This document shows, piece by piece, positions 1-33,584 of a DNA stretch of 64,000 nt. The stretch covers positions 1,906 through 65,905 of the forward strand of contig JBMYRC010000007.1 of the NCBI GenBank assembly GCA_049601975.1. Reading direction: 5' to 3'. A program made the translations under genes and the position numbers. Each line of letters opens with the position of its first letter. Position 1 is the stretch's first letter. Below the pieces are notes generated by a model. It worked only from the letters and a program-made list of their open reading frames with translations, searched no databases and was not told where the DNA came from. The DNA is from Alphaproteobacteria bacterium (lineage in GTDB: Bacteria > Pseudomonadota > Alphaproteobacteria > UBA8366).

Positions 1-5
1 GCGAA

Positions 6-1994
6 GTGCTGTGGTTGGATCCAGAGAATTGCGACGCATTGCACCTTTTGGGGCTTTGCTATCATGCCCGTAATCAGAACGAAGAAGCGTTGGTTTGGAT
101 GGAGAAGGCAATCAAGATAAAGCCGGGCGAGGCCATGTTCCTGACGAATGCCGGACTTGTCACAATGGCACTGGGAGCACTTTCCGGGGCGGCCGAGAAA
201 TTTGAGGCAGCGCTTCTCGCCAATCCAACGTATTCGGAAGCCTATAATAATTTGGCGCTGGTCCGCGAACGTCAAGGCCGATTGATGGAAGCAAGCGTGT
301 TGCTCGAAAAGGCGACCGTGCTCAATCCACAATCGGCCGTGGCTTATTCGAATCACGGGAATATCCTTCGCGGCCTCGGACAAAATAGTGAGGCAATTGC
401 AGCCTATCGCGAGGCCATTCGTCTCGCTCCGCAATTGGCTGCGGCTTATAATGGTCTCGGCAATGCATTACAGGAGCAAGGTCGTCGCAAGGAAGCGGTC
501 GCGGAATTCGACAAGGCCATAGCTCTGGATGCCAACTATGCCGAAGCATATTTCAATCGTGCGATGACTCATGCGGCGCAGGGTGAGACCGTATTGGCGG
601 ACGCCGGTCTCACGCGTGCTTTGGAGATACGCGATGATGCCAGATTTCGGATCGCTCAAGCCGGTTTAATGCCGGTCATACCGGCGTCTGCCGGCGATAT
701 CGTAATTTGGCGTGCGAGGATGGCGGAGCGCTTCGAAAATACATTACGGGATGTTGCATACGTTTCCGGAGCCCCGACTCAGGTACCGGCAATGAGTTTC
801 TATCTTGCTTATCATGGCGAGAACGACCTGAGTCTGATGGAGAGTCTCGCTCGATTTTATAGACGTCTCTATCCTGACCTGACATGGGAGGCGCCACATT
901 GCGTCTCTCCGGTACCTTGCGACGGAAGGTCGATCCGTATTGGCGTGGTATCACGGTATTTCGGTGAACACGCCGTCACTTGGATGACATATGGATTGAT
1001 GGCGGGGTTGCCCCGCGATCGGTTCAATGTCATCGCCGTGACCTTCTTGAGTGAAGAAGAGAATATCTCATCCCGTATCAAGGATGCGGCGGACGACCTG
1101 GTGGTTATCCCTAAAGACATCCAATTGGGCCGCGAGGCAATCGCCGCTCAATCGTTCGATATCTTATTGTATGCGGATATCGGAATGGAGCCACTCAGTT
1201 ATTATCTCGCGTTCGCGCGGTTGGCGCCCATCCAATGTGTCACCTGGGGGCATCCGGATACCACCGGTCTGGAAACAGTCGACTACTATATCAGCAACAA
1301 TCTGGCGGAGCCGGAGAACGGGCAGGAGAGTTATACGGAAAAACTGGTCCGCCTGGATGGTGTGCAAAGTTGGTATCCGCGAATGCCGAGGCCAAAACAG
1401 CTACCAAACCGTGAATTTCTAGGATTGCCGGAGGAGGGTGGCTTTTATCTGTGCCCCCAAAATTCAATCAAAATTCACCCCGATATGGATGCGGCCCTGG
1501 CGGAGATTTTGGAACGCGACGAGACCGGGCGATTGGTGATCTTTGACAGCGCCGATCCCAATTGGACGCAGCTCTTGCTCGCCCGGTGGTCAGCGGTGTT
1601 CGGTGATAAGTTGGAGCGGGTCCATGTCCTATCCCAACGCTCGCTCGATGAATTCCTGGGCGTGCTTGCTGTCGCCGACGTTGTGCTCGATACATGGCCT
1701 TTCGGTGCTGGAAATACGAACTACCAAACCTTTGCGATGGGCGTGCCCGTCGTGACCTTGCCGGGCCAATGGATTCGTGGGCGGGGTACGATCGCGCATT
1801 ATCAGCATATGGGTATTGAGGACTGTATCGCAGAATCGCCGGAGGAATATGTCGAAATCGCGGTGCGTTTAGGAACCGACCCGGATTTCCGAAATAAAAT
1901 CTCACAAAAAATTTACGATAACGCGTCCGCGGTTTTGGAAGATGAGGTCTGTGTGCGAAGTCTTGCCCGGTTCTTGGAAGAGGTCGCGCCGTGA
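6..1994 (+). CDS. TPR-repeat / GT41 (SPINDLY, O-GlcNAc-transferase-like) glycosyltransferase fusion; 5' end probably upstream of window
   Basis: The frame is open to the window edge. The N-terminal third is 34-aa TPR units (AYNNLALV, AYSNHGNIL, AYNGLGNAL, AYFNRAMT). The C-terminal half has a COG3914/GT41-like pattern: IRIGVVSRYFGEHAV, FDILLYADIGMEP, LAPIQCVTWGHPDTTG, YLCPQNSIKIHP, LDTWPFGAGNT. Confidence 0.8.
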   Translation: MLWLDPENCDALHLLGLCYHARNQNEEALVWMEKAIKIKPGEAMFLTNAGLVTMALGALSGAAEKFEAALLANPTYSEAYNNLALVRERQGRLMEASVLLEKATVLNPQSAVAYSNHGNILRGLGQNSEAIAAYREAIRLAPQLAAAYNGLGNALQEQGRRKEAVAEFDKAIALDANYAEAYFNRAMTHAAQGETVLADAGLTRALEIRDDARFRIAQAGLMPVIPASAGDIVIWRARMAERFENTLRDVAYVSGAPTQVPAMSFYLAYHGENDLSLMESLARFYRRLYPDLTWEAPHCVSPVPCDGRSIRIGVVSRYFGEHAVTWMTYGLMAGLPRDRFNVIAVTFLSEEENISSRIKDAADDLVVIPKDIQLGREAIAAQSFDILLYADIGMEPLSYYLAFARLAPIQCVTWGHPDTTGLETVDYYISNNLAEPENGQESYTEKLVRLDGVQSWYPRMPRPKQLPNREFLGLPEEGGFYLCPQNSIKIHPDMDAALAEILERDETGRLVIFDSADPNWTQLLLARWSAVFGDKLERVHVLSQRSLDEFLGVLAVADVVLDTWPFGAGNTNYQTFAMGVPVVTLPGQWIRGRGTIAHYQHMGIEDCIAESPEEYVEIAVRLGTDPDFRNKISQKIYDNASAVLEDEVCVRSLARFLEEVAP

Positions 1995-4171
1995 CCGATA
2001 TCGGTAAAGCTTTGGGTGAGGCTCGGCGGCTGATTGATGGAGGAGACTACAGCGATGCAGCTACCGTATTGGAGCCATTGGCGGGGATAAGCTTTGAGGC
2101 CGCGATGCTTGCCGGCGTTGCGGCTAGTAGTGCTGGAACGCTGGATAAGGCAGTCGACCACTTTACCCGTGCGATACGGATGTCTCCCGAACATCTGGAG
2201 GCGCGCCTGAATTTGGCACTGACGTTGCGGGCGTTGGGTCGAAATGAGAAAGCTGAGGAAGCGTTACGCTCCGCGCTCGACATCGATGCGAAATCGCTTC
2301 CGGTCAATTTGTCTCTTGGCAATTTGACCATTCAAAAAGGTTTGTTTGGGGAAGCACAGGGTTATTTTTCCGCTGTATTGGCAATTGATCCGACTCACAT
2401 AGGTGCGCTGAATAATCTTGGTATTAGCTTGTCCCGATTGGGGCGATTGGGCGAAGCGGGTACGCGTTTTGAGACGGTAATTAATATTCAGCCAGACAAT
2501 GTGAGTGCGCTTGCCAATCTTGGTGCCATTCGCTCTGAGCAAGGGCGAACGCAAGAAGCGATCAACCTTTTAAGGCGTGTTCTTCTGTTGGCGCCGGATC
2601 AAATCGAAGCGACGAACAATTTAGGTGTGGCCTTATTGGACAAAGGTCGCGTCGGCGAGGCGGCAGCGGTGTTGCGCCCTTTAACCGAGGACGGCCGGGG
2701 AGGGGCCGAGGTGTTTTCCAATCTTGGCAATGCATTAGCCAAATTGGGAGATATCGGTGGAGCGGACGCAGCATACGAACAGGCGTTGGCGCTAAGCCCC
2801 AATCCGGGAATTCGGACCAAGCGAGCCTTGTTGCTCCCGGTGATTTGCCCCTCGGTCGATGCGATGGAGGTCTCGCGCCTCGATTTCGAGCAGCGCGTCG
2901 ATGCCCTGATCAAGGAACCGCCGCAACTCGTTGATCCTTTTGGCGAAGTTGGGGTGCCAATTTTCAATCTGTCGTATCAGGATCACAACAATCGCGACTT
3001 GTTGGCAAAACTATCTGATATGTATCTTGCTGCCTGTCCAAGTCTGGAATTCATCGCGCCGCATTGCAGCAATCCTTCCCCACGTGACGCATCAACACCT
3101 GTACGTATTGGTTTTGTGTCTCGGTTTTTCCAAAGCAATTCCGTCGGGCGGTGTTTCCAAGGGGTTTTGCGATATCCAAACCGTAAAGATGTGGAAGTGG
3201 CGGCGTTTACGTTTACCACCGGTCAGGATCCACTTTGGAAGGCAATCGAAGGTGATGTCGCCAACACAGTAATACTGCCAGCGCATTTGGAAGCGGCTCG
3301 CCAGCGGCTCGCCGAAGAAGCCATGGATGTTCTTGTGTTCACCGATATTGGGATGGATCCGCTCACCTATTATTTGGCGTATAGCCGTTTGGCGCCGTTG
3401 CAATGTGTGTTGGGCGGGCATCCCGATGCGACCGGTCTGCGCAATATAGATGCCTATATCAGCTGCGACATTCAGGAGCCGGCGGATGCGGCGGCTCATT
3501 ATCGGGCTCGCTTGGTAAGGTTACCGGGCGCTCCCACTTACTACGAACGTCCGGAGTTGCCAGCTCCGTTGAAAGGGCGATCCTACTTCGGATTACCAGA
3601 CGGGCGGGCTGTTTATTTTTGCGGTCAGACCCTGATCAAAATTCATCCGAATATGGATGAGCTCTTTATGGGTATTCTGGAACGTGATCCTGGCGGAGTT
3701 ATCGTCTTGCCGGAAGGTTATACGCCGGAGCTCGCTGAATTGCTTCGCCAACGGTTTCGCCGAACAATATCCCAATCGGATGAGCGAATTCGGTTTCTGC
3801 CCGCCATGAGTCATGTCGACTATATGAATGTGATGGCGCTGGCGGACGTCTCCTTGGATACTCGGCCTTTTGGTGGCGGGAACACCAGCTGGCAGGCGAT
3901 TTCCGTGGGTACACCGATGGTCACTTGGCCGGGTGATTATTTGCGCGGTCGTTATACACAAGCACTCTATCGGTTGATGGGCGTTGAGGATGCGATTGCG
4001 AATTCCGCGGCGGATTTCATTGAAAAAGCTGTCCGCTTTGGAACGGATGCGGATTTTTCAACAACCTTTACGGCGCGCATCGAGGCAGCCGCGGGCTCGA
4101 TCTTCGAGGACCGCGTTCATGTCGATGCACTATATAGTTATTTGGTGGATCGGGTCAGGACTGAGCTCTGA
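1991..4171 (+). CDS. TPR-repeat / GT41-like glycosyltransferase fusion (paralogue of preceding gene)
   Basis: The GTG start overlaps the upstream stop (GTGA at 1991-1994). Multiple TPR units are present (ALNNLGISL, ALANLGAI, ATNNLGVAL, VFSNLGNAL). The C-terminal half is collinear with ORF 6-1994: VRIGFVSRFFQSNSV, MDVLVFTDIGMDP, LAPLQCVLGGHPDATG, YFCGQTLIKIHP, LDTRPFGGGNT. Confidence 0.8.
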   Translation: MTDIGKALGEARRLIDGGDYSDAATVLEPLAGISFEAAMLAGVAASSAGTLDKAVDHFTRAIRMSPEHLEARLNLALTLRALGRNEKAEEALRSALDIDAKSLPVNLSLGNLTIQKGLFGEAQGYFSAVLAIDPTHIGALNNLGISLSRLGRLGEAGTRFETVINIQPDNVSALANLGAIRSEQGRTQEAINLLRRVLLLAPDQIEATNNLGVALLDKGRVGEAAAVLRPLTEDGRGGAEVFSNLGNALAKLGDIGGADAAYEQALALSPNPGIRTKRALLLPVICPSVDAMEVSRLDFEQRVDALIKEPPQLVDPFGEVGVPIFNLSYQDHNNRDLLAKLSDMYLAACPSLEFIAPHCSNPSPRDASTPVRIGFVSRFFQSNSVGRCFQGVLRYPNRKDVEVAAFTFTTGQDPLWKAIEGDVANTVILPAHLEAARQRLAEEAMDVLVFTDIGMDPLTYYLAYSRLAPLQCVLGGHPDATGLRNIDAYISCDIQEPADAAAHYRARLVRLPGAPTYYERPELPAPLKGRSYFGLPDGRAVYFCGQTLIKIHPNMDELFMGILERDPGGVIVLPEGYTPELAELLRQRFRRTISQSDERIRFLPAMSHVDYMNVMALADVSLDTRPFGGGNTSWQAISVGTPMVTWPGDYLRGRYTQALYRLMGVEDAIANSAADFIEKAVRFGTDADFSTTFTARIEAAAGSIFEDRVHVDALYSYLVDRVRTEL

Positions 4172-4805
4172 TTCCGGCGGCAACTTGGGCGGCTGGTTCC
4201 GTAATCAGGCGATAGAGAATACTCCAATTCGGCCCTGTCCAAGGATCGAATAGCTTCAGCTCGATACCTTCGCGGGCAAAACTCTCGTGATCGTAGAGAC
4301 GATGTCCGCCCGACAAATTGACGTATTTGTCTGCATTGAACTTGCGGCAGATTTCCATAACACGGTCTTGGCCCGTGAATCCGTTTGGGATTTGCAACGT
4401 GCTGGTCCGCACGGTGTTGAAGGGAAGCCCCATTTCTCGACATGAAACCGACAACAACTGCATGAGATATTCGACGAAGTCACCGGAAGGCGTCAGCATG
4501 GCGTCCTGCAACGGGTGGCGGATGCCGCGCAGGATCGGGAAAACGCCGCAGCGGGTTGCCATGGCCTGCGTTGCATTGTCGGCGAATGCTAGGTCGGCGA
4601 TGCGAACGTTCATCGGACCTTTCGCGAGTGGGAGTGTCAGCCATCGAGCCTGGTTCGCCACACCCGGTAATTGATTCCGGTGAACCCAACCCCGGCGGGG
4701 AAATTGCACACAATCGTATATGCAAACGACGTCTGCCTCCGCGAACAGTCGGAAATATCCGGCGTAAGGAATGAAATACGGCTGCATGACCGCGATAGTG
4801 GTCAT
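4155..4805 (-). CDS. WbqC-family protein (sugar/O-antigen modification-associated, function unknown)
   Basis: The N-terminus MTTIAVMQPYFIPYAGYFRLF...IYDCVQFPRRGWVHRNQL matches the characteristic WbqC family start. The 3' end overlaps the convergent GT41 gene by 17 nt. Confidence 0.7.
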   Translation of the reverse strand: MTTIAVMQPYFIPYAGYFRLFAEADVVCIYDCVQFPRRGWVHRNQLPGVANQARWLTLPLAKGPMNVRIADLAFADNATQAMATRCGVFPILRGIRHPLQDAMLTPSGDFVEYLMQLLSVSCREMGLPFNTVRTSTLQIPNGFTGQDRVMEICRKFNADKYVNLSGGHRLYDHESFAREGIELKLFDPWTGPNWSILYRLITEPAAQVAAGIRAQS

Positions 4806-5097
4806 CGGAACCTTTCAAAGCGGCTGTGTCCTGGATTCAGTTTAGTAGGGAAAACCCAAACATCCCAGCGATCACATTCCGTGGTTGACGTGCCTAGTCG
4901 TGCGGTAAAATCTCATTCTCGATGTTGAATGCGGATAATGATTGGCTGAAAAGAGTGTCGGAGTTTCACCTGAAAGACGACGCTGAAAGGGCGACGGAGA
5001 TATATGGTGCAATACCTGTGGCTCGTCGTGGCAAAGGGCGCGGTGACAAAGACCGGAAAAAAGGCTTAGGCTGTATGCGTGAAGAAATGAAAGCCCT

Positions 5098-6204
5098 ATG
5101 ACCGATCCGCAGATGAAAATTCCACTGATGAGGCCCCGGTTACCGGACCGGCAGGCTCTGGCTTCTTATTTAGCGGAGATCGACAAAAATCGTTGGTATA
5201 GCAATTTCGGACCATTGGAACGCCGGTTCGAGGCTAATTTGGCGGAACATTTTAGGCTCGGCGAACGACAAGTGATTTGTGTTGCGAATGGGACACAAGC
5301 GCTCAGCATCTCGCTAAAGTCCGTAGCTCGATTTCCCGTCGGATATTGCCTCATGCCGTCCTTCACATTTGCCGCGACACCGCACGCGGCGGTATCTGCC
5401 GGTCTTGAGCCTTATTTTCTCGACGTTGATCCCGGGACATGGGCGTTGGATCCGCGCAAACTGTTAAGCTTACTTCCAGAGCTTGATGCGCCCATCGCCG
5501 CCGTCGTGCCCGTCGCGCCGTTCGGAGCTGCGGTAGATGTCGAAGCCTGGGAAGAATTTCAGGATGCGACCGGTATCCCCGTTGTGATTGATGCGGCAGC
5601 GGGATTCGACAATGCTCGATGTGGTGCTTCGCCCGTGATGATCAGCCTGCATGCCACGAAAGTGATGGGAATCGGTGAAGGTGGATTGATCTTGTGTCAG
5701 GACTTACAAATTGCTGAACGCGTCCGAGCTAGTCGAAATTTTGGTTTCATGGGCGAACGAGTCGCGGAGATTCCTGGCATGAACGCGAAATTGAGCGAAT
5801 ACGGAGCGGCGGTGGGGTTAGCGGCGCTTGCGGAATGGCCAGAGACCAGATTAATTTTTCTAGACGTCGCACGGCAGTACCGAGAGGTATTCTCAAATGT
5901 GGCGGGTGTTGATTTTGCGCCTGGGTTTTTAGCCGATAGTGCGAGTTCCACGTGCAACATCGTGTTGGAGAGGCCAATCGCCTCTCATGTGATTGAAGCA
6001 TTGGCCCAAGACGGCATCGAGACGCGTCGCTGGTGGAATTTGGGTTGCCATAACGAACCAGTATTCGCCGGATGTCGGCGAGAAGGGCTCGAGGTAACTG
6101 CGGAACTAGGACAGAGGGTAGTAGGTTTGCCGTTCTATAGAGATCTTAACATCGATCAAATTGAGCGGGTCCGAAATAGCCTTGATCGAGCACTCGACCG
6201 GTAA
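5098..6204 (+). CDS. DegT/DnrJ/EryC1/StrS-family PLP-dependent sugar aminotransferase
   Basis: Length is 368 aa. The N-terminal segment IPLMRPRLP...FGPLERRFEANLAEHF is typical of the family, and SLHATKVMGIGEGG contains the Schiff-base lysine context. It is divergent from the WbqC gene. Confidence 0.75.
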   Translation: MTDPQMKIPLMRPRLPDRQALASYLAEIDKNRWYSNFGPLERRFEANLAEHFRLGERQVICVANGTQALSISLKSVARFPVGYCLMPSFTFAATPHAAVSAGLEPYFLDVDPGTWALDPRKLLSLLPELDAPIAAVVPVAPFGAAVDVEAWEEFQDATGIPVVIDAAAGFDNARCGASPVMISLHATKVMGIGEGGLILCQDLQIAERVRASRNFGFMGERVAEIPGMNAKLSEYGAAVGLAALAEWPETRLIFLDVARQYREVFSNVAGVDFAPGFLADSASSTCNIVLERPIASHVIEALAQDGIETRRWWNLGCHNEPVFAGCRREGLEVTAELGQRVVGLPFYRDLNIDQIERVRNSLDRALDR

Positions 6205-6218
6205 GACTTGCCCGATTT

Positions 6219-6231
6219 GGCAAGAGTTACC
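6219..6231. promoter_or_regulatory. candidate enhancer (UAS) half-palindrome GGCA-N5-TACC(GGG), about 100 bp upstream of the flagellin-1 sigma-54 promoter
   Basis: The sequence reads GGCAAGAGTTACCGGG, one mismatch from the GGCA-N5-TGCC motif seen at 7359, 18450 and 18471. It also overlaps the inverted repeat CTTGCC-N6-GGCAAG (6207-6224). Confidence 0.3.
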
Positions 6232-6290
6232 GGGTAATTCGTGTTCTTACAAATTTCCACAACAAGCCACCCATAAATTTTATCATTTAA

Positions 6291-6303
6291 AATCAAATAG
6301 TTG
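6291..6303 (+). promoter_or_regulatory. IHF-like site (WATCAANNNNTTR)
   Basis: AATCAAATAGTTG matches the consensus exactly and is centred about 50 nt upstream of the predicted start of the flagellin-1 sigma-54 promoter. Confidence 0.3.
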
Positions 6304-6319
6304 TGTAATTTAGCGCGAT

Positions 6320-6334
6320 TGGCACCTGTGTTGC
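6320..6334 (+). promoter_or_regulatory. sigma-54 (-24/-12) promoter of flagellin gene 1
   Basis: TGGCACCTGTGTTGC has GG and GC separated by exactly 10 nt, a near-perfect match to TGGCAC-N5-TTGC. It lies about 108 nt upstream of the ATG. Confidence 0.75.
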
Positions 6335-6441
6335 CATTAACCTTTCTAATGATTCGCGTTGGCTTAGGAAACCGATAAACAAGGTTTGCATTAAACAGCG
6401 CGAAGCCAAGGTGCCAAACAAGCCAGAAAGGAGTTGGCAAA

Positions 6442-7272
6442 ATGGCGGCGGATAAAGTTAACTTGTCACAAGCTGTTCGCGGTAATCTTTTAACGTTGCA
6501 ACAAACAGCAACAACGATCGGTCAAACACAGACGCGTTTGTCGACGGGACTCAAAGTCAATACGGCCCTAGATGATGCTGCGGCGTTCTTTACGGCGCGT
6601 GCACTAGATAACAGGGCCTCGGATCTTAATAGTCTTAAGAGCAATATCGATCTCGCGGTCAGTACCATTCAGGCCGCAATCGACGGTATTGATGCGATTA
6701 CTGACTTGGTACAGCAGGCAAAGGGTCTTGCGAGTAACGCCAAGGCAACCGGTGATACGAACGAACGGTCGACATTGGCGGTTCAGTTTAACGAGCTCTT
6801 GAGCCAGATTGACTCCATTGCGAACGATTCGACATTTAACGGGATCAACCTGTTGCAGGCGTCACCCGATAATCTCGATGTCGTTTTCAATGAGGACAAT
6901 ACCTCGAACCTGACGATTACCGGTCTCGACTCGACGACAGCATCTACGGGTATCAACCTTAGTGTCGCCGGGAATAACTTTGGTGCAAACGCGAATATCG
7001 ATACCGCACTCACGGCGATTTCGGCCGCGCTGGTCACCTTGCGCGGCAATGCGTCAACAATGGGTTCGAGTAATACGATCTTGAAAACCCGCCTCGATTT
7101 CACCCAAAACTTGGTGAATACCCTGGAAGGTGGATCGGGCAAACTGACGCTTGCCGATTTGAACGAGGAAAGTGCGAACTTGTTGGCGCTGCAGACACGC
7201 CAGCAACTGGGCCTCAACTCCCTGTCATTGGCTGCCCAGAGCGAACGCGCAATTCTCAGCCTCTTCGGCTAG
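6442..7272 (+). CDS. fla: flagellin (short alphaproteobacterial type, 276 aa)
   Basis: Conserved flagellin N-terminus (LLTLQQT...QTRLSTGLKVNTALDDAAAFF) and C-terminus (ANLLALQTRQQLGLNSLSLAAQSERAILSLFG). A GGAG RBS lies upstream. Confidence 0.95.
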   Translation: MAADKVNLSQAVRGNLLTLQQTATTIGQTQTRLSTGLKVNTALDDAAAFFTARALDNRASDLNSLKSNIDLAVSTIQAAIDGIDAITDLVQQAKGLASNAKATGDTNERSTLAVQFNELLSQIDSIANDSTFNGINLLQASPDNLDVVFNEDNTSNLTITGLDSTTASTGINLSVAGNNFGANANIDTALTAISAALVTLRGNASTMGSSNTILKTRLDFTQNLVNTLEGGSGKLTLADLNEESANLLALQTRQQLGLNSLSLAAQSERAILSLFG

Positions 7273-7358
7273 CATGAACGAACTGCAAGCTAACCAGAAC
7301 TTATTTGCCGCCGCCCGGGTAATTTTTGCCCAGCGCGGTAGGCAAAAATTTCTGATTT

Positions 7359-7371
7359 GGCAAGATTTGCC
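7359..7371. promoter_or_regulatory. candidate enhancer palindrome GGCA-N5-TGCC upstream of the flagellin-2 promoter
   Basis: GGCAAGATTTGCC. The flanking 12-mer GATTTGGCAAGA is identical to 6214-6225 upstream of flagellin 1. Confidence 0.35.
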
Positions 7372-7428
7372 CAAGCTTCGCCCAGTAATTCAAGGCTAAG
7401 TCTCTTGAATTTATAGATTTTTATTGTT

Positions 7429-7443
7429 TGGCATAGCTGTTGC
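7429..7443 (+). promoter_or_regulatory. sigma-54 (-24/-12) promoter of flagellin gene 2
   Basis: TGGCATAGCTGTTGC with exact GG-N10-GC spacing, about 114 nt upstream of the ATG. Confidence 0.75.
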
Positions 7444-7556
7444 TTTTATGAGAACCGGTTTCGATCACATCGATAGAATGTCGATAATGTCTTAACCGTT
7501 CCATAGCGACCGCAGAAGGCGGTTGTATCCATGTATCCTAGAAAGGGAGCTTTAAC

Positions 7557-8384
7557 ATGGCTGAGTCTGTCAATTTATCACAGTCGGTTCGCACGAACCT
7601 GCTGACACTCCAGCGAACTTCAGGTCTAATTGGTGATACTCAAACCCGTTTGTCGACGGGCTTGAAAGTCAATTCGGCTATTGATGACGCACCGGCGTTC
7701 TTCACTGCGAAAGCGTTGAGCAACGCTGCAAACGATCTCGACTCCTTGAAGTCAAATATTGACTTGGCGGTCAGTACCATTCAATCGGCGATCGACGGTA
7801 TCGACGCGATCACCGAACTGGTCAACCAAGCTAAGGGTCTTGCTAGTAACGCCAAAGCGACTGGTGATACGAACGAGCGCTCGACCTTGGCGGTGCAGTT
7901 CAACGAGCTGCTCAGCCAGATTGATACCATCGCAAATGACTCCAGTTTCAACGGCACGAACCTGCTTCAGGCGACGCCGGACAACCTGGCAGTTGAGTTC
8001 AATACTGCGAACACGAGTAACCTGACGATTACAGGCTTGGACTCGACGACTGCTTCGACCGGTATTAATATTGCCAATGCGGCGAATAACTTCGGCGCCA
8101 ACGGCAATATTGATACAGCGTTGACGGCAATTTCCACCGCGCTTTCGTCCTTGCGGTCGAACGCTTCCACGTTGGGTTCAAATAATACGATCCTTTCGAC
8201 CCGTCTGGACTTCACTGCAAACCTGGTTAATACGCTCGAAGGTGGTGAAGGGAAGCTCACTCTGGCCGATCTCAATGAGGAAAGTGCAAATTTGCTGGCT
8301 CTTCAGACCAGACAGCAGCTGGGTATTAACTCTTTGGCCCTCGCCGCGCAGAGCGAACGGTCAATTCTGGCGCTTTTCGGTTAA
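7557..8384 (+). CDS. fla: flagellin (paralogue, 275 aa)
   Basis: Collinear with the flagellin at 6442-7272, with roughly four fifths of residues identical by eye. Same conserved termini. A GGGAG RBS lies upstream. Confidence 0.95.
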   Translation: MAESVNLSQSVRTNLLTLQRTSGLIGDTQTRLSTGLKVNSAIDDAPAFFTAKALSNAANDLDSLKSNIDLAVSTIQSAIDGIDAITELVNQAKGLASNAKATGDTNERSTLAVQFNELLSQIDTIANDSSFNGTNLLQATPDNLAVEFNTANTSNLTITGLDSTTASTGINIANAANNFGANGNIDTALTAISTALSSLRSNASTLGSNNTILSTRLDFTANLVNTLEGGEGKLTLADLNEESANLLALQTRQQLGINSLALAAQSERSILALFG

Positions 8385-8409
8385 TAGCCCTTGGGTTCGC
8401 TGTAACCCT

Positions 8410-8442
8410 GGCGGGGGCCTTTGGCCCCCGCCTTTCTTTTTT
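8410..8442 (+). terminator. rho-independent terminator after flagellin 2
   Basis: Perfect 10-bp GC stem GGCGGGGGCC-TTT-GGCCCCCGCC followed by TTTCTTTTTT. Confidence 0.85.
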
Positions 8443-8609
8443 CGACGCCCATTTGTCCGTTCTCGCCAGCGTTCTCCGCCTTCACGAGGGCAGATATGTA
8501 AAGTTATCGCGGAACAGGCAGCGGCGTGATATAAATCGACAATATGTTAATTCCTGCGCCGCGGTTTTCCTGCCGGGCGCTCCGTTCCAACTCTGTGCAA
8601 CGGTGCGAA

Positions 8610-9002
8610 ATGCCTCTAAAATTGATCTTGAAACCCGGCGAAAAAGTAATCATAAATCAAGCCGTCGTCCTAAACGGCGGCGAGAAGACTGAACTCGTTC
8701 TGCAGAACAAGGCAAGTGTGCTTCGCGAACGGGATATAATGACGGAAGAGAAAGCGGACAGTCCTGCAAAAAGAATTTATTTTGCAGTACAAATGATGTA
8801 TATTTTTCCTGATAAGGAAAGACACTATCAGGGAAAGTTTAACGAACTAGTCGCCTCTTTCGTTGAAGCTGTACCTAGTTCAAGGCCAATTTTACTTGAT
8901 ATTGGTAGAAAAGTTATTGAAGGTAATCTTTATAGCGCGATGAAAGACTGTAATAAGTTGATGCGCTACGAAGAAGAGGTGCTAACGCATGTCACCCAGT
9001 AG
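8610..9002 (+). CDS. flbT: flagellin translational repressor FlbT
   Basis: MPLKLILKPGEKVIINQAVVLNGGEKTELVLQNKASVLRERDIM...RIYFAVQMMY matches the FlbT family pattern. The ORF track starts at 8544, but the conserved N-terminus begins at the ATG at 8610. Confidence 0.85.
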   Translation: MPLKLILKPGEKVIINQAVVLNGGEKTELVLQNKASVLRERDIMTEEKADSPAKRIYFAVQMMYIFPDKERHYQGKFNELVASFVEAVPSSRPILLDIGRKVIEGNLYSAMKDCNKLMRYEEEVLTHVTQ

Positions 9003-9423
9003 TGATCCCTACCGCTCGTCCCAAAAGCTCGGCGCGGGTGCTCGTCAAACTGAGGCGCGCGCGTTGATGGAAACGGCAAGGGCGCTGGCCATTGCGCAAG
9101 AGAATCTCGAGGATATTACGGCCTATCGTGCAGCGTTGCGGCTGAACTGGCGATTGTGGACGATATTTCAGTCGGATGTCTCGGGGGCTGAGAACCCGCT
9201 ACCGGACGATATTAAGCAAAATATCCTGAATTTGAGCGTCTTTATTGACAAACATACTGTGGATGCCTTGGCCAGCCCGGAAGGCCGAAAACTTAAGGTT
9301 TTGATCGATATTAACCGCAATATCGCTAGCGGTCTTATGACCAATTTGGTCGGTGCCACCGAAACACCGCCGGCACCGACACAACCGCCAAGTGGTGGTG
9401 GTGATGGTGGGATCGTCGCGTAG
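8989..9423 (+). CDS. flaF: flagellar biosynthesis regulator FlaF
   Basis: Shows the FlaF pattern (ARQTEARALMETARAL, ALRLNWRLWTIFQSDV, NPLPDDIKQNILNLSVFI). It overlaps flbT by 14 nt, the usual flbT-flaF pairing. Confidence 0.85.
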   Translation: MSPSSDPYRSSQKLGAGARQTEARALMETARALAIAQENLEDITAYRAALRLNWRLWTIFQSDVSGAENPLPDDIKQNILNLSVFIDKHTVDALASPEGRKLKVLIDINRNIASGLMTNLVGATETPPAPTQPPSGGGDGGIVA

Positions 9424-9443
9424 TTTAAGAACCTCGAATTATA

Positions 9444-11285
9444 TTAGGTCGGCAAATCTGCAACGCAGATCACTTCGGGAGTTTGGCTCGCGACGAAGCG
9501 CCGCCACATTTCACGATAGCCACGCTCTAAATCCGACGTAAATTGAATTGTATCGAAAAGCGCCGCAGACACTCGGCTCTCAGCGATCTTATGCCGAATT
9601 CTCGTTAATTCCCCAGCGTGTGTCGCCAAGTGTTGAGCGCGCGCCGCATATTCGTCGGGCGACACCGTGATCAATTCAGGAAGATTCATCGCCAAAAGTA
9701 AACTTGAGGACACTCTGGACGCAAAATGGCGGCCTTGCATTGTGAGGACCGGTAGCCCGGCCCAGAGAGCGTCACTCGTCGTAGTATGGCCGTTGTAAAA
9801 TTGCGTGTCCAACGCGAGATCGGCGTAAGACATTCGTTCCAAATGCCGCGCTCTCGGTAACATCTCGGCGAAGACAATACGATCCGGTGCGACGCCGGCA
9901 CGAGCGGCCGCGCGGGAGAGGTTCTCTTTTGCACGTAAGTTGTTTTGGAGTATCCAAAGGGCGCTATTTGGAACTGATTTTAGTAAACTCATCCAAATTT
10001 GGAAAAAATCAAAATCTATTTTTATAGGGTTATTAAATGAACAAAATATAAATGAATATTTATTTCGAATATATAAGTAATTTTTAGGTATATCTGTGAT
10101 TTTTTCTTGAGTGTTATCGTTGCATTGATACGTATTTGGTAAAAAAACGGCATTCTCACTAAGACACTCAAGTGTCTCCGGCGGTGTTACAATTTTGTCG
10201 GTTAAAATATAATCGAAGAATTCGGCGCCGCTCGTTCCTGGAAATCCCAAATAGGTCGCTTGAATCGAGGCCGGACGTCGCGCGCAAATCCCTAGGCGGT
10301 TGTGTCTTGTATGCCCTTTGAGGTCCACAAGAATATCTATAGAGTCTCGATGGATAAGGTTTGCGGCCTCCTCGTCATTGAATGCTGAAATGTCGACAAA
10401 CTGATCGCAGGATGCGCGAATGGAATCGCGATAGTCACTGCCGTCGTTTGGTCCATGAGAGTACGCGTGGATCGAAAAACTCTCCCGGTCATGCGCCTGA
10501 AATACGCCGCGCATCAAATGGGCCGTCGCATGGTCGTGAAAATCGGCACTGAGATATCCGACGCGAATTTTGGCGTTCGGATTACGTGACGGCCTGAACT
10601 GATACTCTTCGCCATCATTTGCTGCTTCGGAAAGTTGCCGGCTCCATGATCGTGCGACATCCAAGTTTTGAACTCGCTCGTCGACACGGTGGATATTGTC
10701 GAATGGGGGTTCCGGGGTAGGGCGACCCTCTTTCAGCGCCGCGCAATTTAGGCGATCGATTTGTTCTGATAAAATTTCAAGCTCTTCGCCCCATTCACAT
10801 GTGACGCGCAGGAGAGGGTAGAGGCCGGCGCTAGCGATATTATTATCCGATTGTAATGCCAGTGACCTGCGGAACTGAACGATAGCTTCGCCAATTCGGT
10901 TGCGATCCGCGTAGACGGCGGCCAACCGATTTAGAGATTCCGGCATTGGTGACAGCACGACCCATCGCTCAAGATATGGAATGGCCGCATCAATGCGTCC
11001 GGCTTCCAATAACAGGGACGCAAGTATTGATAGTTTGTTCGTATCCGCTTCCGAATCGCGTACCGATGCGCTTAGATACTCGATTGCACTTTCGGGGTCT
11101 TTCACTTGAACACTCGCGATGCCGGCGAGGTAGAGAGCATAGACGTTTTCTTTATCCCGTGTTAGCACCTGGCGACAAAGCTCGAGCGTCTCTTGCCATT
11201 CACACAAATCCGCGTGTCGGGAGGCACTCTCAAGCATGACAAGCAGCTCTTCCGTCGCCGGATCACGATTTTCAGTCGGGCTCAT
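9444..11285 (-). CDS. TPR / GT41 (SPINDLY-like) glycosyltransferase
   Basis: Shows GT41/COG3914 signatures (IRVGYLSADFHDHATAHL, IDILVDLKGHTRHNRLGICARRPASIQATYLGFPGTSG, FCSFNNPIKI, LDTQFYNGHTTTSDALWAGLPVLT). The start is set at the ATG forming an ATGA overlap with the upstream stop (11282-11285); the ORF track extends to 11357. Confidence 0.85.
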   Translation of the reverse strand: MSPTENRDPATEELLVMLESASRHADLCEWQETLELCRQVLTRDKENVYALYLAGIASVQVKDPESAIEYLSASVRDSEADTNKLSILASLLLEAGRIDAAIPYLERWVVLSPMPESLNRLAAVYADRNRIGEAIVQFRRSLALQSDNNIASAGLYPLLRVTCEWGEELEILSEQIDRLNCAALKEGRPTPEPPFDNIHRVDERVQNLDVARSWSRQLSEAANDGEEYQFRPSRNPNAKIRVGYLSADFHDHATAHLMRGVFQAHDRESFSIHAYSHGPNDGSDYRDSIRASCDQFVDISAFNDEEAANLIHRDSIDILVDLKGHTRHNRLGICARRPASIQATYLGFPGTSGAEFFDYILTDKIVTPPETLECLSENAVFLPNTYQCNDNTQEKITDIPKNYLYIRNKYSFIFCSFNNPIKIDFDFFQIWMSLLKSVPNSALWILQNNLRAKENLSRAAARAGVAPDRIVFAEMLPRARHLERMSYADLALDTQFYNGHTTTSDALWAGLPVLTMQGRHFASRVSSSLLLAMNLPELITVSPDEYAARAQHLATHAGELTRIRHKIAESRVSAALFDTIQFTSDLERGYREMWRRFVASQTPEVICVADLPT

Positions 11286-13195
11286 GTAGTAGGTGCATTC
11301 GAATGACGAGCATATTGAGCTAGCTCGCGGGCTACTGTGGCGGCAAGGCCTTCCCAATCACCGTGGCTGCTTTGGCGGAACAAGCGCATGGTCGGATACC
11401 AAGGAGAATCTTCACGATCCATGAGATATCGCCAATCCGCATGATGACCAAGCATGACCCAAACCGGCTTGCCAAGAGCACCCGCAAGATGCGCGGTAGC
11501 GGTATCGACCGTGATCACCAAGTCGAGGGCCTCGACTGCGGCTGCCGTATCATCGAAACTGGCACATTGGGTGCCGAAATCCAGCAGATCGCCAAGAGAA
11601 TTCGGAGATATCTGTCCGACTTGAAGACTCACAAATTGGACCTGATTGACGGCCCGAATTTGTGCTAGCGCGGTTTCTGGACAGCTGCGCATACCGTCAT
11701 CTTGCCGATCTGGATTGCCGAGCCAAACCAGACCGACCTTTAGATCCGTATCGCCTAATTGGGCTCGGAATGAGTCCACTTTAGGAGATGATGGAGACAA
11801 ATAGGGTACATTGGCGGGCACGGACTCCAGAGTGGTATTGAAAATTTGGGGTATACTCATCAGGGGAATGCAGTAGTCAGCTTCCGGAAGAGTGTCCTTA
11901 CGGGCAATGACGTTTTTGATTCCCCGGAGGCTGCGACACAATTCCACCATTGGGCGCTGGCATTCGAAATGTACGTCGGCTCCTTGATCCGAAAGTAGCG
12001 TTAAATATCTGCAAAACTGTAGTGTGTCGCCAAAACCCTGTTCCGCATATACCAATAGTTTGCGACCTTGAAGCGGCTCTCCTTTCCATCGATCGATGGC
12101 AAATCGCCTGTGTTTCGCGGTGAACTGTTCCGCGTGCCAACGAGCTTCGTAATTCTGCCAGCCTTCCGCATAATTGCCCTGCATTAATTGCGCGATTCCA
12201 AGGCTCGTACGGATATCACCATTGTTTGGTGAGATGCTCAGCACTTTCGTGTATACCGCTGCGGCTTCTACTGGGTTATTTAGGTTCAACAGTGCCAGTC
12301 CGAGGTTGCCGAGCGCATTTGTGCTGTCGGGATCAGCCGAATGGGCCGTGCGATAAAGCGCTGCTGCTGCTTCGAAATTACCTTGTGAGCGCAATACATT
12401 ACCGAGATTGACCAAGGCTTCCGGCCAATCGGGACGTATCGCGATTACACGACGAAAGATGTGAGCGGCTTCTGCTAAGTCGCCGTTGGCATGAATGGCG
12501 ACACCGAGATTGTTTACAATCTCCGAATTGTCAGGTGAGATTTCTATGGCGGCGCGAAAATTCTCGATGGCTTCAGGATATTGCCGTGCATCGCAAAGGG
12601 CGAGCCCGAGATTGTTAAGTGCGTCGGTGAAATCCGGAAATAGCGCCAATGACTTTCGGGCAGCCGCTATTGCACTTGGTACCTGACTGTCGCGACGCAA
12701 GGCGAACGAGAGATTGTTAAAGGCCTCATGGGACTCTGGCTGCTTTGAGATACAATGTCGGTAATTTTCGATGGCTCCAGTAAAATCGCCTATGTGCGCT
12801 TGCGCGTTTGCCATCTGGAATTGCGTTGCAGGATCCGTTTGGTCCAGCTCAGCCGCCATTCGCAAATGGCGCAAGGCTTCGTTGGCGCTTCCGTTTGCGA
12901 GCAACACGGCACCTAAATCACGATTGAAGATTGGGTTTGCTGGCGCCTGCCTTTGAGCTTCGCCTAGATACCTGGACGCGTTATCTAAATCTCCTCGTTT
13001 TTGTGCTGTCAGGCCACGCAAATGCCAGGCGATATCCGCATTTGGCACGGCCTCAAGCACTTGGCGGAGGATCTCTTCCACGCGAGGAAGATCATTCTGG
13101 TCGTACGCTCGAAGAGCGTCCGCAAGAACAGCAGAGAGGCTGCCGACTAAAGGTTTGGTATTTTGCTCTTCAGACGCAGTCATGCTGCATTTCAC
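11282..13195 (-). CDS. TPR-repeat / GT9 (heptosyltransferase-fold) glycosyltransferase fusion
   Basis: About 9 TPR units (AFNNLSFAL, ALNNLGLAL, IVNNLGVAI, ALVNLGNVL, ALGNLGLAL) are followed by a GT9-like C-terminal domain: LLVYAEQGFGDTLQFCRYL, VGLVWLGNP, LVITVDTATAHLAGALGKPVWVML. Confidence 0.8.
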   Translation of the reverse strand: MKCSMTASEEQNTKPLVGSLSAVLADALRAYDQNDLPRVEEILRQVLEAVPNADIAWHLRGLTAQKRGDLDNASRYLGEAQRQAPANPIFNRDLGAVLLANGSANEALRHLRMAAELDQTDPATQFQMANAQAHIGDFTGAIENYRHCISKQPESHEAFNNLSFALRRDSQVPSAIAAARKSLALFPDFTDALNNLGLALCDARQYPEAIENFRAAIEISPDNSEIVNNLGVAIHANGDLAEAAHIFRRVIAIRPDWPEALVNLGNVLRSQGNFEAAAALYRTAHSADPDSTNALGNLGLALLNLNNPVEAAAVYTKVLSISPNNGDIRTSLGIAQLMQGNYAEGWQNYEARWHAEQFTAKHRRFAIDRWKGEPLQGRKLLVYAEQGFGDTLQFCRYLTLLSDQGADVHFECQRPMVELCRSLRGIKNVIARKDTLPEADYCIPLMSIPQIFNTTLESVPANVPYLSPSSPKVDSFRAQLGDTDLKVGLVWLGNPDRQDDGMRSCPETALAQIRAVNQVQFVSLQVGQISPNSLGDLLDFGTQCASFDDTAAAVEALDLVITVDTATAHLAGALGKPVWVMLGHHADWRYLMDREDSPWYPTMRLFRQSSHGDWEGLAATVARELAQYARHSNAPTT

Positions 13196-13263: not shown

Positions 13264-14232
13264 CTAACGTAGGAAATTCGAGAGCGATAGGGTCTGAATT
13301 CGTGCGATTGTCGTAAATGATGCCTCCAACTGAATTTGTTCAAAGTTGAGGGAGGTAATGACTTCGCCCGGGTCGATGTTCTCGATTTCCGCGATGGAAT
13401 CCTGCGAAAACTGGAGGAAATCGTTGTGCTTGTCCCGGATGTTGTCCAAGACAACCCGGTCCAAACCGATATCTGCGCGTAGGTCGGATAGAGTCTTATC
13501 GACGCCGTTGTTGTCGATGAGTTCGGTTAACTCCACCATGGCTTCGGACAGAAATGTTTTTTCTTGGGCCGTGATTGGATCGGTAAAGGTAACGTTGGAG
13601 ACGTTATCCAGCGTCCGAATGAGTTTTTCGAACGCGCTTTCGTCCGCATTCATGCCGTATGCAACGTTGAAACCATCGTCAGCACGAGTAGACTGCAAGA
13701 CCGCGTCGCCTTGATAATATCCAGTTTCAACTGTTTGCACGAAAGTCGGCGGAGAGCCAGGAGCGGGTGCCGTATAATTGGCGTTTGAGAGGTTGACGGG
13801 CTTCGTCTCGACCGCTCCACCGGCAAACAAGAAGCGGCTGTCGTCCTTGGTGTTCAAAACCTCGACGACCTGGTCGAGTGACGCTTGTGCCAGCAATGAC
13901 AGCTGGATGTCATCAGCGGCGCTGCCATTGAGCGCGGCGGCGAAATCGGTGCGAGCCTTGCGCGCGACATCTTCGATCTGGTCCAACGCAAAGGCCATCA
14001 GATCCAGCCGTTTCTCGGTAATGGTGATGTTCTGGATAAACTGCTCAGCCTGGGACAACTCGCTTTTCAAATTGACGAGTCTGCCGGCGTCGTCGGCGAT
14101 ACCGGAGAAGGATTGCGTTTTCTTGCCTGAGGCGATCTGCATCTGGAGATCGTTCACATTGCGCTGAGTGCGCAGAGCATTGCTGGTGATCAGTTGTTGC
14201 TGAGCGAGAGTGGAGACACGTGTCGCGACCAT
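13264..14232 (-). CDS. flgL: flagellar hook-associated protein 3 FlgL
   Basis: Flagellin-like N-terminus RVSTLAQQQL...LRTQRNVNDLQMQIASGKK, 322 aa, immediately downstream of flgK. Confidence 0.85.
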   Translation of the reverse strand: MVATRVSTLAQQQLITSNALRTQRNVNDLQMQIASGKKTQSFSGIADDAGRLVNLKSELSQAEQFIQNITITEKRLDLMAFALDQIEDVARKARTDFAAALNGSAADDIQLSLLAQASLDQVVEVLNTKDDSRFLFAGGAVETKPVNLSNANYTAPAPGSPPTFVQTVETGYYQGDAVLQSTRADDGFNVAYGMNADESAFEKLIRTLDNVSNVTFTDPITAQEKTFLSEAMVELTELIDNNGVDKTLSDLRADIGLDRVVLDNIRDKHNDFLQFSQDSIAEIENIDPGEVITSLNFEQIQLEASFTTIARIQTLSLSNFLR

Positions 14233-27901: not shown

Positions 27902-28609
27902 ATGTTTGCAGAGGAGCATCGACCGGAACAAAAAACGCAGGTCCCAACCTGGTTAGTCAGCTTCGCCGATGTCATGGCGCTGATGCTCGCATTTTTTGTG
28001 ATGCTGTTTTCCATGAGCAATATTCAGACGGAGACATGGGACGCTATAATTTCGCAGATATCACCTTCCGAGACGCTTAAAAAGGAAGAGACGCCAAGGC
28101 CGCAGGCGACAAAGAATATAGCGACGGTTAAACTTAGCGAAGCTTTGTCGCTCGACTATTTGGCAAATGTCTTGGAGGAGCATCTTTCGGTGGACGCGTT
28201 GTTGAACGATGCGTCGGTACATCGTCTCGACGGATTGGTTGTCGTATCGTTGCCGTCGGATACGATGTTTCCTGCGGGTGAAGTTGGATTAACCGAAGCG
28301 GCGCGCGAGGCTTTGTTTCGTATGGGGGGAATTATTACAAGTATCGGCAACAGGATCGACGTGAGAGGCCATACGGACCCGGTATCGACGACGGATGGCA
28401 CATACGCATCGAAATGGACGATTTCGTTGGCACGTGCGGCCGCCGTAGCGAATGAATTGCGACGTACTGGTTATGGTAGGCAAATTCCGATCTATGGTCT
28501 TGCGGATACCCGGTTTATTCATCTGGACGAACAAATTCCCGAATCAGCCCGTTTCGTGTTGGCGCGCCGGGTAGATGTCGTCGTGCATCCGCATTCAGGT
28601 GATATCTGA
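27902..28609 (+). CDS. motB: flagellar stator protein MotB
   Basis: VPTWLVSFADVMALMLAFFVMLF carries the proton-channel Asp. The OmpA-like domain reads VVVSLPSDTMFPAGEVGLTEAAREAL...IDVRGHTDPV...WTISLARAAAVANELRRTGY. Confidence 0.85.
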   Translation: MFAEEHRPEQKTQVPTWLVSFADVMALMLAFFVMLFSMSNIQTETWDAIISQISPSETLKKEETPRPQATKNIATVKLSEALSLDYLANVLEEHLSVDALLNDASVHRLDGLVVVSLPSDTMFPAGEVGLTEAAREALFRMGGIITSIGNRIDVRGHTDPVSTTDGTYASKWTISLARAAAVANELRRTGYGRQIPIYGLADTRFIHLDEQIPESARFVLARRVDVVVHPHSGDI

Positions 28610-33299: not shown

Positions 33300-33584
33300 T
33301 TAGTCGACCGTCGTGTTGCTGTCTTCAGTAGTATTTTCCAATTTATCCTGATGTTCGCCAACGAAATTGGAATACGACTGTAAATCACCCAAAAGCGCAG
33401 ATAACGGTTCGCGTATTTCACCGGCATCCTCGGGTGAAAAATCCGCCACGACTTGACAGGCTTCATCTACTTTCGCCTGCATCAGTTCCATATCAAGATA
33501 CTGATTTTCCTTCAGTTTATCTTGTCCCATTGCCACAATTCCACGTAACACCTCTATTTCGGCAATCAGTTCGTCTTTTGTCAT
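33300..33584 (-). CDS. small acidic helical protein, unknown function (possible flagellar export chaperone/adaptor)
   Basis: 94 aa, acidic, predicted helical. Its start overlaps the stop of the FlhB-C-like gene (ATGA). No motif was recognised. Confidence 0.4.
   Translation of the reverse strand: MTKDELIAEIEVLRGIVAMGQDKLKENQYLDMELMQAKVDEACQVVADFSPEDAGEIREPLSALLGDLQSYSNFVGEHQDKLENTTEDSNTTVD

Follow-up and report, generated by a model that had tools for sequence, protein, structure and literature searches.

Four genes for TPR-linked glycosyltransferases of three catalytic types flank the flagellin genes of an uncultured alphaproteobacterium

Gene layout at the flagellin locus

We analyzed a 64,000-nucleotide (nt) stretch of contig JBMYRC010000007.1, here called the window, which comes from the metagenome-assembled genome (MAG) of an uncultured organism deposited as "Alphaproteobacteria bacterium." Among its close relatives are sequences from Tara Oceans and MAGs that carry the label "Rickettsiales bacterium." One large flagellar gene cluster of alphaproteobacterial type takes up the window's first 38 kb. 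Bases 1 to 13195 hold four long genes, GT_A to GT_D, that flank two flagellin genes, flbT, and flaF; each of the four encodes, as judged by Pfam, tetratricopeptide repeats (TPRs) at the N terminus and a glycosyltransferase domain at the C terminus. An earlier note on this DNA had described four such genes around flagellin, flbT, and flaF, and we found all four with the architecture given there. The four genes and the two flagellin genes are as follows.

1 to 1994 (6 to 1994 in the earlier note), plus strand: GT_A, TPR region and divergent GT41 domain (Pfam TPR families and PF13844, 78.2 bits)
1991 to 4171, plus strand: GT_B, TPR region and divergent GT41 domain, 726 amino acids (aa) (PF13844, 77.9 bits; 4-nt overlap with GT_A)
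6442 to 7272, plus strand: flagellin 1, 276 aa, the presumed acceptor (Flagellin_N, Flagellin_C)
7557 to 8384, plus strand: flagellin 2, 275 aa (Pfam)
9444 to 11285, minus strand: GT_C, short TPR region and OGT-type GT41 domain, 613 aa (PF13844, 310.7 bits)
11282 to 13183, minus strand: GT_D, long TPR region and GT9-like GT-B domain, 633 aa (homology to FlmG; AlphaFold2 and Foldseek)

The reading frame of GT_A is open from base 3, and the gene runs past the start of the window. The full gene, which encodes 691 aa, is on L001, a near-identical contig (2 mismatches in 14,171 nt compared with the window) that extends 8 kb farther upstream (L001:7929-10004). The gene begins 82 nt upstream of the window, which thus lacks its first 28 codons. 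For GT_D, the gene calls on L001 and on L007, a related locus described below, begin at an ATG at 13183, versus a GTG at 13195. The coordinates in the earlier note thus need two corrections: GT_A is cut by the window start, and GT_D most likely starts at 13183 rather than at 13195.

GT_A and GT_B are on the plus strand, and GT_C and GT_D are on the minus strand. The 4-nt overlaps within each pair (GT_A/GT_B and GT_D/GT_C) suggest that the pairs are two two-gene translational units. A tblastn search found no other copies of the catalytic domains elsewhere in the window. Because of this, and because the arrangement has been kept in seven distinct related loci, we take it to be more than chance. 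NCBIfam had a specific name for none of the four proteins and gave only sub-threshold matches to TPR models and to an NGT model.

The catalytic domains

The catalytic domains are of three types: FlmG/GT9-like (GT_D), OGT-type GT41 (GT_C), and the divergent GT41 pair (GT_A and GT_B). The last three proteins all passed the Pfam gathering cutoff of 25 bits for PF13844 (Glyco_transf_41). The division into three GT41-like proteins and a GT9-like one, proposed from the sequence in the earlier note, was upheld by Pfam for the GT41 proteins and by Foldseek on a predicted structure for GT_D.

Pfam TPR families span residues ∼1 to 350 of GT_D, and its similarity to GT_A, GT_B, and GT_C is limited to the TPRs. 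Its match to Glyco_transf_9 (PF01075) covered only 33 residues and was sub-threshold (20.2 bits versus a cutoff of 22), and a PDB sequence search with the catalytic domain gave no useful relative. An AlphaFold2 model of the C-terminal 322 residues (predicted local distance difference test score of 93.9; 47 homologs) has a two-lobed Rossmann GT-B fold. Its best Foldseek neighbors in the PDB were 3tov (a Veillonella GT9 protein), 1psw (WaaF), 2h1h and 2gt1 (WaaC), and 4rap (the protein O-heptosyltransferase TibC), all matched with a probability of 1.00 and template modeling scores of 0.48 to 0.61. A G-x-G-D motif (G72, G74, and D75 in catalytic-domain numbering) is invariant across the 47 family members. 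The predicted fold bears out a GT9-like catalytic domain in GT_D.

The earlier note likened the layout of all four proteins to that of FlmG. FlmG has 596 residues; its TPR half binds flagellin, and its GT-B half determines whether pseudaminic or legionaminic acid is preferred (PMC7591256; bioRxiv 10.1101/2022.03.25.485807). It has been described as confined to Caulobacterales. Our reference was not Caulobacter crescentus FlmG itself but a 598-aa Caulobacter-type ortholog from a related species, encoded on contig L002, which alone among the metagenome contigs searched matched the published flmG primer NK-74 exactly. The 598-aa TPR protein begins at the primer, genes for a cytidylyltransferase and a GNAT acetyltransferase come next, and four more gene-internal flmG primers match L002 collinearly with 4 to 6 mismatches. 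On these sequence matches we conclude that the L002 protein is an FlmG ortholog.

GT_D and the FlmG ortholog aligned by blastp over residues 3 to 592 against 62 to 623, with 25% identity and an E value of 6e-35. The catalytic halves alone gave an E value of 1e-23, and a profile of the GT_D family matched the FlmG catalytic half in hhalign over 266 columns (99.8% probability; E value of 7e-28). The FlmG ortholog aligned with GT_A and GT_B in the TPR region only and had no significant match to GT_C (E value of 6.9). Thus, as far as alignment can tell, GT_D is the only one of the four that is homologous to FlmG across both domains, and the GT41 trio shares just the layout. The likeness to FlmG therefore stands as architecture for all four proteins and as homology for GT_D alone; the possibility that all four are FlmG paralogs was rejected.

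GT_D is closer (42 to 62% identity) to a large uncharacterized family of TPR-GT9-like proteins than it is to FlmG. At 50% identity, this family has 41,906 clusters with E values up to 0.001 and 19,778 with E values up to 1e-30. By homology, GT_D is a link between FlmG and this very large family. Some giant proteins, up to 3,140 aa long (P0395-P0544), have three to seven tandem copies of the GT_D-type catalytic domain. Another member of the family is encoded in Oryzomonas rubra (Geobacteraceae; L012, GCA_008369015.1) in a series of three or more TPR proteins, together with GT1 and GT2 enzymes and methyltransferases, with a sigma-54 two-component pair upstream.

GT_C resembles the O-GlcNAc transferases (OGTs). 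It scored 328 bits against human OGT (E value of 8e-97), higher than against SPY (196 bits), and the alignment with human OGT begins in the last TPRs, covers the two catalytic lobes, and leaves out the intervening domain. In GT41 (OGT, SPINDLY, HMW1C), the sugar passed to protein is GlcNAc for OGT, fucose for SPY, and glucose for NGT. All of the equivalents of H498, K842, H920/T921/T922, and D925 of human OGT, its catalytic and UDP-binding residues, are present. Because the UDP-binding residues are intact, the comparison suggests that the donor of GT_C is a UDP-sugar. When GT_C was the query in a search of 185,579 species genomes by exact peptide words, there was only one close relative.

Over their full lengths, GT_A and GT_B share 35% identity, and their identity to GT_C is just 21 to 24%. 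The PDB matches of GT_B were human OGT (1e-22) and XcOGT (4e-21). In both proteins the GHTT motif has been replaced by GAGNT or GGGNT (GGGNT in GT_B), and GT_B has Asn at the position of H498. Because of these replacements, their activity appears less certain. The altered motifs could also mean that some of the paralogs are regulators or chaperones; a catalytically degenerate one, for which GT_B is the candidate, might hold flagellin or couple glycosylation to control by FlbT and FlaF, whose genes adjoin these. Listeria GmaR, reported to be both a glycosyltransferase and an anti-repressor (PMC9638930, PMC3150276), would be a precedent. However, GT_A and GT_B both retain the Lys equivalent to K842, and in the related locus L008 their catalytic halves are better conserved (63 to 65% identity) than their TPR halves (49%), which argues for a selected enzymatic function. 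In addition, H498 is not universally required in GT41 enzymes. We consider a purely regulatory or chaperone role to be distinctly unlikely.

Related loci and neighboring genes

With homologs of GT_D, GT_C, and GT_B we fetched seven distinct related loci (L003, L004, L005, L007, L008, L010, and L011; L006 duplicates L005), whose hosts are uncultured, mostly marine alphaproteobacteria. All seven have, whole or in part, the backbone flgK-flgL-GT_D-GT_C-flaF-flbT-flagellin-flagellin-degT-(GT_E)-wbqC-GT_B-GT_A, in which GT_E is a fifth gene that is discussed below. Beyond GT_A, where the locus reaches that far, are genes for a hexapeptide acyltransferase, a ∼303-aa protein, PhyH, and FlaG. A HAD hydrolase gene accompanies these genes in L001 and L011 and is replaced by a methyltransferase gene in L010. 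The TPR-glycosyltransferase genes, sorted into orthologous groups (A to E) by tblastn with the catalytic domains, were distributed as follows.

L003 and L008: A, B, C, and D
L007 and L011: A, B, C, and D, plus E between degT and wbqC
L004: B, C, D, and E; the locus ends within B
L010: A, B, D, and E; no C
L005: D and one A/B-type gene

Each related locus thus has two to five TPR-glycosyltransferase genes, and every one has exactly two flagellin genes, those of L004 looking fragmented by assembly frameshifts. flgL, and flgK where the locus reaches it, is in place throughout. In L011, an IS630-type transposase gene (HTH and DDE_3 domains) lies between GT_C and GT_D (L011:21070-22015).

The linkage persists while the identity of GT_C drops to 52% and that of GT_B to 48%. 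All GT_C orthologs inspected (∼610 aa, 52 to 96% identity) are in the island between flaF and GT_D/flgL, and GT_B orthologs (∼726 aa, down to 48% identity) were found only in this island. Synteny in relatives thus confirms the tie to the flagellar locus. The earlier note had held that occurrence of the genes independently of flagellar loci would count against a flagellar role; we saw such occurrence for distant homologs only, and the orthologs of all four genes stay in the island. The distant case, a 48%-identical homolog of GT_C located among CO-dehydrogenase-type genes and away from flagellar genes, agrees with general cytoplasmic protein glycosylation, in which the GT41 enzymes, GT_C above all, would carry out O-GlcNAc-type signaling and their flagellar position would be incidental or regulatory. 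So do the nearness of GT_C to metazoan OGT, its retained catalytic residues, and a bacterial GT41 enzyme of Yersinia that is reported to O-GlcNAcylate many proteins (PMC11329713). The constant position of GT_C orthologs in every locus inspected speaks against this explanation, as does the 4-nt overlap of GT_C with GT_D, which implies cotranslation with an FlmG-like enzyme, and we judge it to be very improbable.

Between the window and L007, the flagellar proteins are 86 to 96% identical (flagellins, 92 to 94%; FlbT and FlaF, 95 to 96%; FlgK and FlgL, 89%), versus 52 to 79% for the products of the sugar genes (TPR-glycosyltransferases, 52 to 77%; WbqC, 75%; DegT, 79%). By this measure the sugar genes turn over faster than the flagellum. 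Divergence that is fast relative to that of the neighbors is the usual pattern for surface-glycan loci, and here it suggests either diversifying selection or exchange of the island. In L003, L004, L007, L008, L010, and L011, conservation of the catalytic half equaled or exceeded that of the TPR half (L005 was too partial for the comparison), which speaks for selection on the catalytic halves.

The fifth gene, GT_E, is intact between degT and wbqC in L004, L007, L010, and L011. It encodes a second FlmG-like paralog (E value of 8e-86 versus GT_D and of 3e-36 versus FlmG) with a weak GT9 match. In the window, the 292-nt spacer between wbqC and degT holds a 59-codon open reading frame (ORF), residues 7 to 31 of which align in register with residues 7 to 31 of L007 GT_E at 40% identity. 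This modest resemblance hints that the lineage of the window may have lost GT_E by deletion and that the ORF may be its relic. Because GT_E is present in four relatives and the window has this probable relic, the set appears to have been ancestrally one of five genes, and four would not be the basic number.

The other features of the island and its flagellar neighbors are as follows.

4155 to 4805, minus strand: WbqC-like protein, a putative sugar-pathway accessory protein (PF08889, 123 bits)
4922 to 5101, plus strand: 59-codon ORF, probable N-terminal relic of GT_E (position and strand as for intact GT_E)
5098 to 6204, plus strand: DegT/DesI-like sugar aminotransferase dependent on pyridoxal phosphate (PF01041, 196 bits)
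6320 to 6334, plus strand: sigma-54-type promoter 5' of flagellin 1, perfect match to TGGCAC-N5-TTGC (pattern scan, consensus match only)
7429 to 7443, plus strand: sigma-54-type promoter 5' of flagellin 2, one mismatch (pattern scan)
8544 to 9002 (the L001 call starts at 8610), plus strand: FlbT, flagellin translation regulator (PF07378, 138 bits)
8989 to 9423, plus strand: FlaF, flagellin secretion/regulation partner (PF07309, 102 bits)
13264 to 14232, minus strand: FlgL, hook-filament junction protein, directly upstream of GT_D (NCBIfam, Pfam)
14244 to 16355, minus strand: FlgK, hook-associated protein 1 (FlgK_D1, Flg_bb_rod, Flg_bbr_C)

The two flagellins are 83% identical in a pairwise alignment. 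Ser and Thr make up 21 to 22% of their residues, with a central cluster in flagellin 1 (21%) of 10 in the 25 residues at 151 to 175, a composition in line with their presumed role as acceptors. The sigma-54-type matches are ∼110 nt upstream of each flagellin gene, and a strong terminator-like hairpin is 3' of flagellin 2 (8410-8432). The 12-mer GATTTGGCAAGA is common to both flagellin upstream regions, at about 6214 and about 7352, beyond the sigma-54-type sites; it may be an enhancer site for an FlbD-like activator. A pattern scan found no match to a sigma-54 or sigma-28 consensus in the short stretches that precede the glycosyltransferase operons, and a scan for sigma-70 promoters gave fewer hits than did shuffled sequence. 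A perfect sigma-54 consensus lies inside the coding region of GT_B (2214-2228, plus strand), 223 nt past its start, and could be chance or an internal promoter.

GT_D is 80 nt downstream of flgL on the same strand, and a terminator scan predicted no terminator between them. Cotranscription of GT_D and GT_C with flgK and flgL would place the enzymes in the cell before flagellin is synthesized. The same position, directly downstream of flgK-flgL, agrees with a partitioning of substrates in which each enzyme would serve a different axial protein (either flagellin, FlgK, FlgL, or the hook) and the number of enzymes would reflect that of the acceptors, not that of the sugars. Four different TPR domains could indeed encode four acceptor specificities, and the earlier note had offered substrate-specific enzymes for each flagellin and for FlgK and FlgL as one option. 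However, the two flagellins are 83% identical, the relatives carry two to five enzymes and yet always two flagellins with flgL and flgK unchanged, and catalytic domains of three types would not be expected if the acceptor alone differed. We think such partitioning unlikely.

The genes between the flagellins and GT_B point to sugar modification. degT is present in all seven related loci and wbqC is at the same position in six of them. The best NCBIfam match of DegT was DesI, below the cutoff, and its PDB matches were 3ju7 and DesI (2po3), at 2e-39. The PDB held no relative of the WbqC-like protein that we could find, and a literature search on WbqC gave nothing informative. Just upstream of the window, L001 has genes for a PglD/PerB/VioB-like hexapeptide N-acyltransferase, a HAD hydrolase, and a PhyH dioxygenase. 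The product of DesI is dTDP-4-amino-4,6-dideoxyglucose, and PglD, PerB, and VioB N-acetylate 4-amino-dideoxy sugars. Because a DesI-like aminotransferase and a PglD/PerB/VioB-like acyltransferase are both local, it is a reasonable guess that at least one donor is an N-acylated 4-amino-4,6-dideoxyhexose of the viosamine or bacillosamine type. The conserved ∼303-aa protein, which has no Pfam family, always adjoins the hexapeptide acyltransferase at the island edge (L001:3408-4316, minus strand, upstream of the window; L010:6296-7207; L011:6241-7155) and is a candidate sugar-modifying enzyme.

The flagellar cluster encodes, besides the flagellins, FlbT, FlaF, FlgL, and FlgK, an FlgN-like protein, FlgJ, FlgI, FliX, DksA, FlgH, FlgA, FlgG, FlgF, FliL, FliM, MotB-like proteins, FliP, FliR, and FlhB. 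Right after two MotB-like genes is an ORF of 1171 aa (28609-32124, plus strand) with only a marginal AMIN-like match. A stand-alone 114-aa protein (33581-33925, minus strand) matches FlhB over the C-terminal domain alone (profile positions 261 to 335); full-length FlhB is also present (36617-37723). Farther along the window, there are three consecutive genes (57273-62726, plus strand). The first is a 247-aa ORF without a Pfam match, the product of the second (510 aa) has impB/mucB/samB (IMS) and DUF6504 domains, and that of the third (1086 aa) is of the DNA polymerase III alpha type. By domain content this looks like an imuA-imuB-dnaE2 mutagenesis cassette. Its G+C content is 0.57 to 0.61, versus about 0.52 elsewhere.

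A putative glycosylation island compared with known systems

As in flagellin glycosylation islands, glycosyltransferase and sugar-modification genes adjoin the flagellin genes here, and the gene content varies among relatives. Because of the analogy to FlmG, the conserved linkage, and the three catalytic types, we believe that the locus is probably a flagellin glycosylation island, whose four TPR-docked cytoplasmic O-glycosyltransferases would add several sugars or build an oligosaccharide. The four would be soluble cytoplasmic enzymes that modify proteins. The N-terminal TPR domain would dock on unfolded or chaperone-free flagellin before its export, and the C-terminal GT-B domain would move a sugar from a nucleotide-sugar donor to Ser or Thr or to a sugar that the protein already carries. 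Because the catalytic domains are of three distinct types, it is most likely that different types would add different sugars or carry out different steps, and the same two flagellins would come to bear either an oligosaccharide or several different glycans. We infer that flagellin is the acceptor, as we do the donor sugars and the division of labor among the enzymes; TPR-mediated docking would follow by analogy to FlmG.

Several points weigh against this interpretation. The source is an uncultured MAG, and the assigned function rests on homology and gene neighborhood. The GT_C homolog among CO-dehydrogenase-type genes has its counterpart in the GT_D family, whose homolog in O. rubra has no flagellin within 8 kb. 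The active-site replacements in GT_A and GT_B have been described above. Divergence is faster in the TPR halves than in the flagellins, their supposed binding partners. In addition, there was no gene for a NeuB/PseI-type synthase, a CMP-sugar synthetase, or a PseB-type enzyme in the 64-kb window or in the 8 kb upstream (L001), and the gene tables of the relatives had no nonulosonic-acid genes within about 10 kb of the island. FlmG enzymes use CMP-activated pseudaminic or legionaminic acid, genes for which were thus not found locally. The island also has no sugar nucleotidyltransferase or 4,6-dehydratase, and thus the donor pathway is locally incomplete.

Our reading of the locus as a glycosylation island could be extended, tentatively and with some doubt, to a combinatorial "reader-writer" system. 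Ancestrally five TPR-docked enzymes of three catalytic types would act on the same two flagellins, and the set would be gained, lost, and diversified faster than the flagellum itself, with variation of the filament driven by phage or grazers. If this were true, Caulobacterales would not be the sole hosts of FlmG-type enzymes, nor would nonulosonic acids be their sole donors, and FlmG would be one specialized twig of a family of TPR-linked, GT9-like protein glycosyltransferases that numbers more than 40,000 clusters. That the sugar genes diverge so fast relative to the flagellar genes suggests a diversifying pressure on the filament glycans of marine plankton.

How cytoplasmic O-glycosyltransferases choose their substrates and sites is poorly understood, and FlmG, with one enzyme and one sugar, has been the main model. 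The locus described here would be a natural system in which a common docking principle is combined with three catalytic kinds on the same two flagellins, and it could be used to separate acceptor recognition, donor choice, and order. Four aspects are new: a single island combines FlmG-like with GT41 enzymes, all of which have TPR domains of their own; the set appears to have had five genes ancestrally; it occurs, with its FlmG homolog, in a lineage labelled by its submitters as Alphaproteobacteria or Rickettsiales, not Caulobacterales; and GT_D ties FlmG to a very large family. The third corrects the narrow distribution assumed for FlmG-type enzymes. These findings extend a known theme and do not overturn current understanding.

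According to the earlier note, the combination of genes matched nothing characterized, and we likewise found no system in which GT41 and FlmG-like TPR enzymes occur together. It also suggested that four enzymes make a more elaborate system; several glycosyltransferases per island, GT41 among them, had already been catalogued from genomes (PMC4875605). Among known systems, FlmG of C. crescentus and Brevundimonas subvibrioides is one of the closest. Like FlmG, GT_D has an N-terminal TPR region and a C-terminal GT-B domain, is homologous to it over ∼600 residues, and is encoded among alphaproteobacterial flagellar genes with FlbT, FlaF, and sigma-54-type flagellin promoters. Unlike FlmG, to which its identity is low, GT_D has no pseudaminic- or legionaminic-acid genes that we could find nearby. 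In addition, one FlmG suffices in Caulobacter, whereas GT_D is one of four or five TPR-glycosyltransferases, and the other three in the window are GT41 enzymes.

The best fold matches of the GT_D catalytic domain, the heptosyltransferases WaaC and WaaF and the protein O-heptosyltransferase TibC, are only ∼12% identical to it in sequence. TibC, which glycosylates protein serines in the cytoplasm, is an example of this fold acting on protein. Unlike GT_D, GT9 enzymes lack a TPR domain, and FlmG-type relatives use CMP-nonulosonic acids, not ADP-heptose. With respect to the OGTs (human OGT, XcOGT, and the Thermobaculum enzyme), GT_C aligns with human OGT through both lobes and retains the catalytic residues. 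It is unlike human OGT in lacking the intervening domain, in its short TPR region, and in its location in a flagellar operon; GT_A and GT_B are far more divergent. In Synechococcus, a TPR-GT41 protein, Ogt, is encoded beside pilA and glycosylates pilin (PMC9306852).

Flagellin islands of Enterobacteriaceae have one to three glycosyltransferases, GT41 included, and vary among strains (PMC4875605). As in the window, GT41 genes are beside flagellin genes together with genes for sugar aminotransferases and acyl- or methyltransferases, and the enzymes are, as here, known from genomes only. They differ in that most of the GT41 proteins carry methyltransferase domains and in that glycosyltransferase families are reported as mutually exclusive per island, whereas GT41 and GT9-like enzymes occur together in the window.

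The Maf-1 and Maf-2 proteins of Shewanella oneidensis modify the same flagellins with different serine preferences, and Maf-1 binds flagellin by its TPR domain. Mafs carry a GT-A MAF_flag10 domain, of which there is none in the island: Pfam gave no match to MAF_flag10/DUF115 in the window ORFs scanned or in the related-locus gene tables. In Pseudomonas syringae, according to one report, Fgt1, Fgt2, and the vio genes place a viosamine-containing trisaccharide on flagellin (PMC3927599). What the Fgt proteins and the Mafs have in common with the island, as we read it, is that several glycosyltransferases act on the same flagellins.

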